Shown here: in pieces, positions 54-4,919 of the stretch | How the letters are laid out: each line of letters begins with the position of its first letter | How positions within the stretch are numbered: the stretch's first letter is position 1 | From: a virus | Lineage: Duplodnaviria; Heunggongvirae; Uroviricota; Caudoviricetes | DNA length: 4,919 nucleotides | IMG/VR virus record: IMGVR_UViG_2531839582_000013 | Direction: 5' to 3' (one strand) | The notes under the pieces: model-generated | What the model saw: only the letters and a program-made list of their open reading frames with translations | Databases searched by the model: none | What the model was told of the DNA's origin: nothing | Translations under genes and position numbers: made by a program

Positions 54-656
54 CTAATCAGAATTTATAACCAACACCCACGATGAACCGTCAGTGCGCC
101 AGTCACCACTGCCGGAGCCTTCATAAGCAATATCAATGGCCACGGATTCGGTCGGGTTAAACTGCACGCCAGCCCCCCACGCCAGAGACGTGTTGCTGTG
201 GCGACCGTCATCACTTCCGGTCAGCACATCATGCGTTTTCCCCGTATTGTCGGTCACCTGCAGATAATCCCCGGAGAAAGTCGACACACGGCTGTAAGCC
301 ACACCCGCCATCGCATACGCGCTGAACCATTCATTCACGCGCACAGACGGTCCCGCCATCACGCTGAACCAGCGGTTACGCACGGAATCCTCATGCCAGC
401 GGGTATCGCTGTAATGCGTTTTTTGCTCATCTTCAGCGTTGGCATAACTGAATGACGTAATCAGCCCCAGCGTGTCCGTAAACTCATAACGGTATTTCAC
501 GTTAATCCCGTTCAGATTATCGCTGCCGGGAGCGTTCGTACGGGCATGAAGATACCCTGCGCTCAGTGTGGCCTGCTGCTCAGACGCCCATGCAGGCGCA
601 CCGGATACGGCCAGACAGATGGCTGCGGACAAAATGGCTGCATAAACTTTACGCAT
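54..656 (-). CDS. lom: Lom outer-membrane protein (Ail/Lom/PagC family 8-stranded beta-barrel); 3' end frameshifted as sequenced
   Basis: 200-aa ORF with a signal peptide (MRKVYAAILSAAICLAVSGAPAWA) and Lom-family motifs (NGINVKYRYEFTD, WFSVMAGP, AYAMAGVAYSR, AIDIAYEGSGSGDWRTDG). GAGG Shine-Dalgarno 4 nt upstream of the ATG at 656. The last 10 codons are out of frame: the adjacent frame over 58..87 encodes FIVGVGYKF followed by a stop at 58..60, the family's canonical C-terminus. Confidence 0.88.
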   Translation of the reverse strand: MRKVYAAILSAAICLAVSGAPAWASEQQATLSAGYLHARTNAPGSDNLNGINVKYRYEFTDTLGLITSFSYANAEDEQKTHYSDTRWHEDSVRNRWFSVMAGPSVRVNEWFSAYAMAGVAYSRVSTFSGDYLQVTDNTGKTHDVLTGSDDGRHSNTSLAWGAGVQFNPTESVAIDIAYEGSGSGDWRTDGSSWVLVINSD

Positions 657-680
657 AATTACCTCTCGCTTTTCTGCAAT

Positions 681-704
681 AAAAAAGGCGCCATTTCTGG
701 CGCC
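681..704 (-). terminator. Putative rho-independent terminator downstream of J, between J and lom
   Basis: Stem ggcgcc (687..692), loop atttct (693..698), stem ggcgcc (699..704), with aaaaaa at 681..686. On the minus strand this is a hairpin followed by six U, 19 nt after the J stop codon at 724..726. Confidence 0.5.
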
Positions 705-723
705 CGTATTGGGGTTATAAAAT

Positions 724-1743
724 TCAGCTGATACTGATGCCTGCGGTGGCTTTCTTCATCACCACAACCAGCAAATCGCTGATACTTGCTGTGGGATACC
801 AGTCATTTACCAACCATGCTGACACCGAAAACTCCAGTGTCATGTGACCGTGACCGGCAGGCATATCAATAACACCACTGTAAATCAGCGTATTATCCAG
901 CGCGGTACGGTTATAAATTTCAGCACCGTTTTTCCGTACTATCAGACGGCATGAGGAGTAAATATCAGTATGCTCTTTCTCATGTTTAGCGCCGCTGAAT
1001 GCCACCGCCGGAATAACAATCTGCCGGTCAAACGGCTGATCGTCATAAACCCTGACGGTAATGGTTCCTGATGGCCACCGCTCCGGTGCACGGGAGTCCC
1101 GGGGGAAAGCTTTGCCCACTGTTTTAACGAGATCGCCTTCAATCTGGTTGGCGGACAGTTTTCCCAGAACCCGACAGTTCTCGTTAATCGTGACGTTGTT
1201 GAGCGTCCCGGAGTTCGCATTCACGTTACCGCTGATATCGGCATTTTTCGCCGTCAGCCACCCGTCCGGTGTCAGGGAAAATGCCGGAGGATTACCGCCG
1301 CTGGTAATGGTCGGAGCCGTCAGGCGTTTCAGGAACACGTCGTTCATGAATATCTGATCGCCCTGACCAACAAACATTGGTCTTGTGTTGCCATTAGACG
1401 GATCAATAAACGCGATACGGTTAGCGGCAACCAGGAACTGGCTCAGCTTGCCTTCTTCCGTGTCCTCCATGCTGAGGCCAATACCCGCGACATAATGTTT
1501 GCCGTCTTTGGTCTGCTCAATTTTGACAGCCCACATGGCATTCCACTTATCGTTGGCGTCCTTCCACTCTTTCGAAAACTCCTCCAGGTCAGGCGCAAGC
1601 TGACCGTTATCAATCTGCGTCCACAGCTCCTGAGCCAGATGGGTTTTCCCTATCTCGCCTTTGAAAAAATCCAGATAGCCTGATGCATCATCACTCGGCT
1701 GACCGACAGCCTCCACGAATGCCGATTTGCCAACGGTGTTCAC
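724..1743 (-). CDS. J: J C-terminal fragment (receptor-binding end); the open frame actually extends upstream to about 2130 without a start codon
   Basis: 339-codon ORF from a GTG at 1743. It matches the gpJ C-terminal region ([13 protein letters not shown]..., [91 protein letters not shown]). The same frame stays open and J-like up to the stop at 2131..2133. Part of the pseudogene above. Confidence 0.6.
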
Positions 1744-3011
1744 ACTGCGAACGTAAAAATAATAATCATGGCCCGGTTTGATATTGATACTGGCGGCTAT
1801 CCAGTACAGTGCCGTACCAAGATAACGCGCGCTGGTTTCAACCTGCCTGATATCCGCAATCCGTTTTTCCGAGAACCAGAACTCAAACTGTACCGTCGGG
1901 TCATAAACCGCAAGATGCGGCGTGGCGGTTATCTGAAAATAGCCCGGCGTCAGCTCAATCCGCGACGGCGCTGCCGGTGCGGCAATCCGGAACGATACCG
2001 ACGCCGGATCGCCCTGCTGCCCCCACGCATTTACTGCCCGGACTGTCAGCCTGTAGTTCCCCAGCGCCAGTTGTGTGAAGCGGTAAGTGGTTTCCGTCGT
2101 CCGGGCCGTGCTGACCAGCCGCTCACGCCGTCATCCGCTGCCACGGTCAGGCGAAGCAGAAGCTCACGCCCTTCACCACCTTCGGCGTTCCCAGCGGCCA
2201 GACCTGATACTCCCCGCTGTCTGCGGTGACTTCGCGGTCAGTGCTGCACGCTGGCGGCGTGACACCATTACCGTGCCGCTCTGGTCGCCGTCAAAGTGCG
2301 CCCCGTTATCCACGATGGCCTCTTTTTCCGGTACATGCTGCACGGCGGTGATGGCATACGTGCCGTCTCGTTCTCACGGATACTCACGCAGCGGAACAGG
2401 CGCTGGCGCACGTCGGCAGCTTCAGCCCCCAACGCTGTATTCAGCAACGCCGTCAGGAACACGGCTCACTTTCACCTTCACGCCGTCGGTGACGGACTGA
2501 CCTCCACGCTGACCGGATCCCTCCGTCAACCAGGCTTATCAGCGTGGTCCGGAGATGGCAGCGTGATTTCACGGTCGAGCGTCAGCGTCCGGGTCTGGCT
2601 GTTCACCGCCAGCACGCGCCCCCGGTGCGATACCGCATAGTCATCATCGCAGATTTCAATGACATCCCCGGTACATGGCGAAGCCCTTCGCACCCACGCT
2701 GAAGTCCACGGTCTGCGTTTCCAGCAGTTCGTTTTAATCAGCCACAGCCCGGCGCGGTGGCCTGCCCCCGGCTGGTACAGCCAAAGCATCCATCTTCGTG
2801 ACGTTACGACCGTAACGGGCAATGGCCTGCGTTCTCACAAGCTCTGTCGCCGTCTCCCAGCCGTTATTCGGGTCAATCCAGTTCACCTCAACGGCATTAT
2901 GGCGGTCCTTCAGGGCGCTGAAGCTGTAGCGGAACGGCGCCCATCATCCGGCATCACCACATTACTGCGGTTATAGGTCCACACCTTATCGAGGTCGGTC
3001 CTGCACGAACG

Positions 3012-4079
3012 TCAGCGTCTGCCCGTTCCATACCGGCATACAGCGCATCGCGAGCAGAAATCACTGAGCACATCCCACGCCTTACGCTGGTGGTCAGAGG
3101 CATTACAGGTGATGCGCGGCTCCGTGCCGCCAAAACCGTCCGGCACCGACTGGTCGCAGTACTGGCCGATGACATACAGCGCCCATTTATCCACATCTGC
3201 CGCACCAAGACGTTTCCCCATGCCGTAGCGCGGATGGGTCAGCATATCCCACAGACACCAGGCCATGTTGTTGCTGTATGCTGGCTTAAACGTTCCGTCC
3301 CAGATACCGCTGTATTGCCGCGTCTGCGGGTTATAATTCGACGGCACCTGCAGAATACGCCCGCGCAGATGATAATTACGGCTCACCTGCTGGCTGCCGA
3401 ACTGCTCCGAGTCCACCTGCACGCCGACCAGTGCCGTGTTCGGGTAGCACTGTTTCACATCGATAATTTCGGTGTATGACGACCAGAGCGTTTTGTTCTG
3501 CAGCTGGTCTGTGGTGCTGTCCGGCGTCATCCTGCGCATCCGGATATTAAACGGGCGCGGCGGCAGGTTATCCACCACCACCGAGGCCAGATACTGTGAA
3601 GTGGTTTTACCCTTAATGGTGATGTCTTTTTCCGTCACCCAGCCACCGTTACGTTGTATCTGAACCAGCAGGCGGACTTCCGATGGATTCCTGTCCCCCT
3701 TTGAGGTGGTTTCCACCAGTGCCTGCACGCCGAAAGTAAAACGCAGACGGTCAATGTTTGCCGACGTGATGGTCCGGGTGATCGGCGTGTCATATTTCAC
3801 TTCTGTACCGAGCACCGTCTCGGAGCCGGAGGATTCAAATCCCTCCGGCGGTGTCTGCTCCTGCTCACCGGCCCGGAACACCACCGTGACGCCGGATATA
3901 TTGGTATTCCCCTCACTGTCCAGCACCGGCGTACTGTTCAGCAGCACGCTTTTTAATCCATCCACCGGACCTTCAACCGGCCCTTCGCTGATGGCATCGA
4001 TCACACTCAGCAGCTGCGTGGACTTCAGGTTATCTTTCGCTTCGCGCGGGGTATGCCCCTTACTGCTGCCTTTACCCAT
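3012..4079 (-). CDS. J: J N-terminal fragment (intact 355-codon frame ending at the first frameshift)
   Basis: ATG at 4079 with GGAG 8 nt upstream. Begins MGKGSSKGHTPREAKDNLKSTQLLSVIDAISEGP and matches the gpJ N-terminus up to ...KAWDVLSDFCS, then leaves the J frame at about 3050 and terminates at 3012. This is part of the pseudogene above, listed because gene callers will emit it as a separate ORF. Confidence 0.6.
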   Translation of the reverse strand: MGKGSSKGHTPREAKDNLKSTQLLSVIDAISEGPVEGPVDGLKSVLLNSTPVLDSEGNTNISGVTVVFRAGEQEQTPPEGFESSGSETVLGTEVKYDTPITRTITSANIDRLRFTFGVQALVETTSKGDRNPSEVRLLVQIQRNGGWVTEKDITIKGKTTSQYLASVVVDNLPPRPFNIRMRRMTPDSTTDQLQNKTLWSSYTEIIDVKQCYPNTALVGVQVDSEQFGSQQVSRNYHLRGRILQVPSNYNPQTRQYSGIWDGTFKPAYSNNMAWCLWDMLTHPRYGMGKRLGAADVDKWALYVIGQYCDQSVPDGFGGTEPRITCNASDHQRKAWDVLSDFCSRCAVCRYGTGRR

Positions 4080-4101
4080 TCGTCATGCTCCATAAACGAT
4101 A

Positions 4102-4121
4102 AAACCGCCCGGAGGCGGTTT
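4102..4121 (-). other. Perfect 8-bp stem-loop in the I-J intergenic spacer; function unknown
   Basis: Plus-strand aaaccgcc (4102..4109), loop cgga, ggcggttt (4114..4121). On the minus-strand mRNA this is GAAACCGCC-UCCG-GGCGGUUU followed by UAUCGUUUAUGG, then the J Shine-Dalgarno and ATG. Confidence 0.25.
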
Positions 4122-4139
4122 CACATAAAACATTTTGCA

Positions 4140-4811
4140 TCAGCGACCAATCACCACAACCTGACCACCGTCCCCTTCGTCTGCCGTGCTGATCTCCTGA
4201 GAAACCACGCGTGACCCCACGCGCATTTCACCGTACAGAACCGGCAGAACATTGCCCTGGGCAACCATGTTATCCAGTGAGGAGAAATAGGTGTTCTGTT
4301 TGCCGTTATCCGTTGTCTGTGTACGGGGAGTTCTGGCTTTCGGTGCCAGCATCTGCGCCACACCACCGAGCACCATACTGGCACCGAGAGAAAACAGGAT
4401 GCCGGTCATACCACCGGCCCCAATGGCTGCCCCCCATGCTGCAAGGGTGGCTCCGGCGGTAAAGAATGATCCGGCAATGGCGGCAGCCCCCAGGACAATC
4501 TGGAATACGCCACCTGACTTGGCCCCGGCGACTCTGGGAACAATATGAATCACAGCGCCATCAGGCAGAGTCTCATGTAACTGCGCCGTTAACCCGGACG
4601 TGCTGACGTCCCGCCCGGCAATCCGTACCTGATACCAGCCGTCGCTCAGTTTCTGACGAAACACCGGGAGCTGTGTGGCCAGTGCGCGGATGGCTTCAGC
4701 CCCCGTTTTCACACGAAGGTCGATGCGGCGGCCAAATCGTTGCAAATCCCCGTAAAGGCAGATGCGCGCCATGCCCGGTGACGCCAGAGGGAGTGTGTGC
4801 GTCGCTGCCAT
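4140..4811 (-). CDS. I: Tail assembly protein I (lambda gpI-like)
   Basis: 223-aa ORF, the same length as lambda gpI and near-identical by recall (MAATHTLPLASPGMARICLYGDLQRFGRRIDLRVKTGAEAIRALATQLP...). It has a Gly/Ala-rich hydrophobic C-terminal half. The start lies 103 nt inside the 3' end of K and the stop is 60 nt upstream of the J ATG, the same spacing I recall for lambda. Confidence 0.93.
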   Translation of the reverse strand: MAATHTLPLASPGMARICLYGDLQRFGRRIDLRVKTGAEAIRALATQLPVFRQKLSDGWYQVRIAGRDVSTSGLTAQLHETLPDGAVIHIVPRVAGAKSGGVFQIVLGAAAIAGSFFTAGATLAAWGAAIGAGGMTGILFSLGASMVLGGVAQMLAPKARTPRTQTTDNGKQNTYFSSLDNMVAQGNVLPVLYGEMRVGSRVVSQEISTADEGDGGQVVVIGR

Positions 4812-4919
4812 TTGTCGGTATACCTCTCTCGTTTGCTCAGTTGTTCAGGAATATGGTGCAGCAGCTCGCCATCACCACAGTAAATGGCGGCATGATTCGG
4901 CACCGATGAACCAAAACAG
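4709..4919 (-). CDS. K: Tail assembly protein K (lambda gpK-like, NlpC/P60-type C-terminal region); 5' end lies beyond the window
   Basis: The frame is open from the window edge to the stop at 4709..4711. The C-terminal peptide ...VPNHAAIYCGDGELLHHIPEQLSKRERYTDKWQRRTHSLWRHRAWRASAFTG... matches the gpK C-terminus by recall. It overlaps I out of frame. Confidence 0.85.
   Translation of the reverse strand, partial: CFGSSVPNHAAIYCGDGELLHHIPEQLSKRERYTDKWQRRTHSLWRHRAWRASAFTGICNDLAAASTFV

Follow-up and report, generated by a model that had tools for sequence, protein, structure and literature searches.

The whole 4919 bp stretch of DNA analysed here, referred to as the window, comprises the entire stand-alone contig AQBT01000032.1 of the draft assembly GCA_000358555.1 of Escherichia coli p0305293.10, an ETEC isolate, and is very likely to be a chimeric consensus into which the tail regions of three prophages were collapsed, in which case its broken J gene would not reflect any real gene decay. 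This reading rests on the comparison of the window with three related prophage copies, designated A, B and C. The single-base gaps that break up J lie on columns that distinguish the copies from one another, the contig is a mosaic of them, and the gap pattern, as well as one of the joins within the mosaic, is unique to this contig.

The contig and its genes

All of the genes in the window are encoded on the minus strand in the order K–I–J–lom (Table 1), an arrangement also annotated in phage 2G7b and in E. coli prophages, and the DNA displays 93–96% identity to that of lambdoid phages and of thousands of E. coli prophages. On the minus strand, GC-rich, terminator-like hairpins followed by T runs are located directly 3′ of lom (10–31) and directly 3′ of J (686–705). 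Small separate contigs, such as the present one of 4.9 kb, are a common form of repeat contigs. The gene-index entry for AQBT01000032.1 reads 'samples_with_this_contig 3', yet its proteins are found on one contig only. A sibling isolate, P0305293.1, is listed as an ETEC strain from Bangladesh (2011) that was sequenced at the IGS centre (PMC4309559).

Table 1. Genes, open reading frames and segments of different prophage origin in the window
Feature	Position	Strand	Remarks
lom (Ail/Lom outer-membrane protein gene)	54..656	-	One-base gap at ~85-88
J, lambda-type tip attachment / host specificity gene	724..4079	-	Fragmented as written
J C-terminal ORF, 339 aa	724-1743	-	As-written fragment
J N-terminal ORF, 355 aa	3012-4079	-	As-written fragment
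I, tail assembly gene	4140..4811	-	Intact, 223 aa, PF06805
K 3' part (C40 peptidase)	4709..4919	-	Truncated at contig end
Copy B segment (strain 120899)	87..1588		2 mismatches; lom and J C-terminal receptor-binding part
B-to-A join	1588..1589		At CCTCCAG motif common to both copies
Copy A segment	1589..2107		99-100% identity per 100-nt bin
Gap zone	2126..3099		Copy A minus 37 single bases; J residues ~327-664
Copy C segment, ~220 nt	3100..3321		C at every informative site
Copy A segment	3336..4919		228/228 informative sites; J N-terminus, gene I, K 3' end

Single-base gaps in the central third of J

Pairwise alignment of the region 2101–3120 with nine J-bearing references gave an identical count in every case, with 37 single bases absent from the window and none extra, confirming the proposal of the initial annotation that the central third of J is full of single-base losses. 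The estimate of '20 or more' made on that occasion was correct in that the losses are real, but the number obtained by alignment is nearly double. Similarly, the left limit that had been placed at 2125 agrees well with the one found here (2126), while the right limit, placed at 3055, falls about 45 nt short of its true position at 3097–3099; a compensating triple, composed of a single gap at 3089 and a pair at 3097, which converts WLTT into SDH and keeps the frame, had been missed. The gaps are densely packed, well beyond what chance would produce: in comparison with the copies that match, 37 deletions occur in 974 nt and a single one in the rest of the contig. With respect to its nearest allele, that of copy A, the region 2101–3120 displays one substitution, 37 deletions and no insertions in 1021 nt, and at no site in the gap zone is more than 1 nt deleted. 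Examples of the gapped form are GGATCCCTCCGTC and CACGCCGTCATC.

The lost bases are of all four kinds and display no link to homopolymers, 16 of the 37 gaps being located at a run length of 1. A panel of nine J alleles placed 20 of the 37 gaps on columns that vary between alleles, compared with a background frequency of 10.5%, and the gaps were enriched at third codon positions. A missing base of any of the four kinds, the absence of a motif and the tracking of paralogue SNPs by the gaps led to the rejection of RNA editing, programmed frameshifting and a diversity-generating retroelement as candidate explanations.

As written, J is broken into fragments, from which no tail-tip protein could be made, as had been anticipated. 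The 355-residue N-terminal ORF contains the FNIII-A_GpJ domain alone and does indeed end in the non-J tail that had been described, CSRCAVCRYGTGRR, while the 339-residue C-terminal ORF contains Phage_Tail_Tip and Ig_GpJ_C. The gap zone takes in Phage-tail_3 and a portion of Ig_J; neither of these domains was detectable by domain search in the gene as written, and the junk ORFs created in its centre matched nothing. Once the 37 gaps are filled, J reads as one open frame of 1130 residues harbouring all six gpJ domains (FNIII-A_GpJ, Phage-tail_3, Ig_J, Ig_J_second, Phage_Tail_Tip and Ig_GpJ_C). The full domain set in a single frame that is expected of the gpJ family is, in other words, missing from the sequence as written and present after gap repair. 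The resemblance to lambda gpJ resides in the K–I–J–lom gene order and in the six-domain set of the repaired protein, whereas the differences are the out-of-frame central third of the gene as written and the fact that the J of the window is a blend of three alleles, which is probably not the sequence of any real J gene.

Three co-resident prophage copies

In the nearest complete ETEC genomes, J is present at four to seven places per genome. When the left part of the window was searched alone, the match was to copy B, which belongs to a separate prophage of the same ETEC genomes, while the right part corresponds to copy A. A model restricted to copies A and B accounts for 24 of the 37 gaps, the other 13 falling off the columns that distinguish A from B, and was superseded upon identification of a third copy. 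A predicted allele, in which 34 gap sites of A were given the alternative base known from other alleles, was used as a search query. Out of 15,240 J places, distributed over 4,581 genomes, it matched best to a third locus, copy C, in the ETEC lineage that bears both A and B. In strain 120899, copies A, B and C are located at 0.57, 4.76 and 0.14 Mb, respectively, and the copy C locus is also found in strains 602354, 504237, ETEC-2265 and L5_E1779. The copies used for comparison were taken from the complete genomes of two related strains, 120899 and 602354, and not from p0305293.10 itself.

Two lambda-like phage genomes have been deposited as plasmids, NZ_LR883007.1 (46 kb, 'plasmid 2' of L5_E1779_ETEC) and NZ_CP055252.1 (pAH01-1, 46.9 kb). 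The first of these contains a near-duplicate of copy B, and its lom, J and K genes are all annotated as frameshifted, in what looks like long-read indel error.

Gaps coincide with differences between copies

Of the 1008 columns of the gap zone, 45 are mismatched between copies A and C (~4.5%, corresponding to ~95.5% identity), and 36 of the 37 gaps lie exactly on these mismatch columns (hypergeometric P = 1.7e-56). When 300 random sets of 37 deletions with equal placement freedom were generated as a control, 2.6 deletions on average, and never more than 6, fell on A/C columns. Every one of the 37 gaps lies on a column that varies among A, B and C. The nine A/C mismatch columns at which a base was retained in the zone display the A base in eight cases and the C base in one. 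At the sites where B alone differs, the base common to A and C was kept in 16 of 17 cases, the exception being lost at ~2621, which indicates that A and C are the sole pair merged in the gap zone. In the comparison of A with B, no correspondence was observed between the choice of a gap or a base and the distinction between transitions and transversions.

This coincidence bears directly on the cause implied by the initial annotation, namely read error or low per-base quality in the region 2100–3100. An unpolished stretch derived from one or a few low-quality reads, for instance a long-read bridge or a segment of low coverage, is favoured by the deletion-only pattern, by its sharp boundaries and by its location in a repeated gene, and such a pattern is what the initial annotation had in view. 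Random error would not, on the other hand, place 36 of 37 deletions on inter-copy SNP columns, and the gaps display no link to homopolymers. An ETEC multi-colony isolate collection from the same centre, of which p0305293.10 may be a member, was sequenced from HiSeq 2000 paired ends at >200× and assembled with Celera Assembler (PMC4462620); the published data for the isolate series are thus Illumina reads and include no long reads, and at such a depth a deletion rate of 4% is impossible from random error. Random sequencing error is consequently a very improbable origin of the gaps, and their position on sites at which co-resident J genes differ, together with the depth of the Illumina series, identifies a repeat-collapse consensus error and not low-quality sequence as the more fitting cause.

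A homopolymer or long-read error model was discarded in view of the 16 gaps at a run length of 1 and of the data type of the series. Assemblies affected by long-read or 454 homopolymer indels resemble the window in that single-base deletions give rise to apparent frameshifted pseudogenes, as for lom, J and K in NZ_LR883007.1, but in the window the gaps lie on inter-copy SNP columns instead of homopolymers and the series is of Illumina origin.

Mosaic structure of the contig

Read from left to right, the contig is composed of A-like sequence, B, A, A with the A/C mismatch columns lost, C and A again. The copy C patch contains three bases that are absent from both A and B, and had appeared as 'mixed' (~3100–3330) in the first three-way map. 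To the right of it, a stretch of 1.58 kb (3336–4919) is 100% identical to an intact copy, including the segment 4080–4919, which is identical to copy A.

The join between B and A at 1588/1589 is in frame and leaves the window shorter than either copy, by 3 nt in the case of B and by 87 nt in that of A. Database matches end at this point from both sides, and a search of 5,426 complete genomes of E. coli and of 50,697 phage records revealed none that spans it; the join is probably chimeric and of assembler origin.

A single base is also missing near the left end of the contig, in lom, from a column (~85–88) that is occupied by C in copy A and by A in copy B. The resulting frameshift affects the last ten codons, so that the protein ends in ...DGSSWVLVINSD in place of ...DGFIVGVGYKF, and filling the gap restores the canonical C-terminus ...DGFIVGVGYKF of a normal Lom. 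Judging from its position on an inter-copy difference, the lom gap would be the same artefact as the gaps in J, occurring outside the J zone. The flanks of the gap zone, previously regarded as clean, are so in the sense that those of J, as well as gene I, are devoid of frame-breaking indels, but the lom gap, the join at 1588/1589 and the copy C patch at 3100–3321 had gone unnoticed.

The gap pattern is confined to one contig

The junk ORFs created by the gaps are present in AQBT01000032.1 only, in an index of 153 billion genes, and looking up these ORFs in the same index revealed no sibling isolates with the same gaps. A 51-mer spanning several of the gaps had no exact match in a collection of genome contigs, which is explained by the restriction of that collection to one genome per species.

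Whether the gaps are artefact or real decay was the right question to pose, and the evidence decides in favour of an artefact. Since decay is a known fate of cryptic prophages, and the annotation of some complete genomes includes frameshifted J genes, a decaying prophage J that had accumulated 37 one-base deletions might be envisaged. A pseudogene undergoing neutral decay would, however, carry substitutions alongside indels in both directions and of mixed size, with no tie to paralogues. What is observed is the opposite of neutral decay: 37 indels to one substitution relative to the nearest allele, no insertions and no deletion of more than 1 nt at any site. Moreover, the changes are restricted to 974 nt next to 1.58 kb that are completely identical to an intact copy, each gap lies on a site that varies between paralogues, and the 153-billion-gene index holds the junk ORFs of no other assembly. 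Real pseudogenization is accordingly just as improbable as random sequencing error.

A model for the formation of the gapped consensus

Several findings that would point to a collapsed repeat apply to the window: the region is multi-copy in related ETEC genomes, the gaps lie on columns that distinguish the copies, and the contig is a mosaic with a join absent from genomes. The collapse of near-identical repeats, recognizable by correlated differences between copies, is a documented, classic failure of assemblers of the overlap-layout-consensus type (PMC1868940). The window resembles such mis-assemblies in that near-identical copies appear merged, the affected columns are marked by inter-copy differences, and the product is a short stand-alone mosaic contig. 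It departs from the usual description, in which one allele is chosen at each correlated SNP, in that ~80% of the columns (36 of 45) are blank, and also in that segments of several copies are joined in succession (B, A, A+C, C, A).

In the model proposed here, a piece derived from copy A and ending at ~3099 would have overlapped with a piece derived from copy C and starting at ~2126. At most of the A/C-discordant columns the consensus step would have written no base, leaving one-base gaps, and additional B, C and A pieces would have been joined at either side of the A/C overlap. The consensus would track a single copy outside the overlap, which is why the flanks read cleanly, and the lom gap at the left end of the contig may be a product of the same effect. 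As for the exact software step, we infer that the mismatches may have been laid out as pairs of half-gap columns, each of which was then called as a gap, in the contig-consensus stage of Celera Assembler. This stage tolerates overlaps with a divergence of several percent. According to the authors of Hawkeye, Celera Assembler by default joins no reads that differ by more than 1.5% (PMC1868940), a threshold which, compared with the 4.5% divergence between A and C, implies that the merge would have taken place either in a subsequent stage of greater tolerance or with settings other than the default ones. The literature on a Celera Assembler 'SNP column called as gap' yielded general descriptions of collapsed repeats only.

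The position of the gaps on A/C columns and the occurrence of A and C sequence at the flanks of the zone would also be accounted for by a recombination scar, in which a heteroduplex formed during gene conversion between A and C had undergone aberrant repair, with excision of one base at most (~80%) of the mismatches. If true, this would amount to a recombination-coupled frameshift mutagenesis able to inactivate paralogous phage genes. However, it needs an unknown repair activity, and to our knowledge no mismatch-processing pathway deletes a mismatched base pair. Further assumptions would be required for the lom gap at an A/B SNP and for the join at the 7-nt motif at 1588/1589, whereas an assembler patchwork requires none, and the look-up of the junk ORFs in the 153-billion-gene index placed the pattern in no other genome. 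A recombination scar is hence the least probable of the explanations considered, and the consensus artefact is retained as the preferred one.

Conclusions

The symptom described here is an unusual one for a mis-assembly, in that SNPs between copies appear in the consensus as one-base gaps, where the choice of a single allele would have been expected. Its consequences are not biological and are confined to the pollution of public databases and the risk of false pseudogene and allele calls. Both of the annotated J products of the contig are artefact fragments deposited in GenBank/nr, namely ENG40751.1 ('putative host specificity protein J', 355 residues, 3012–4079) and ENG40748.1 ('fibronectin type III family protein', 339 residues, 724–1743). 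The merging of prophage repeats in an old draft assembly is in this way a source of false frameshifts and chimeric alleles, by which counts of pseudogenes, of prophage decay or of J/receptor-binding alleles drawn from such drafts are misled. A simple test, which can be applied as a screen without the reads, is to ask whether the indels sit on sites that vary between paralogues.

The genes underlying the window are ordinary lambda-type K, I, J and lom genes, and the gaps are not a biological feature of them. The prophages of E. coli p0305293.10 almost certainly hold ordinary, intact J genes.
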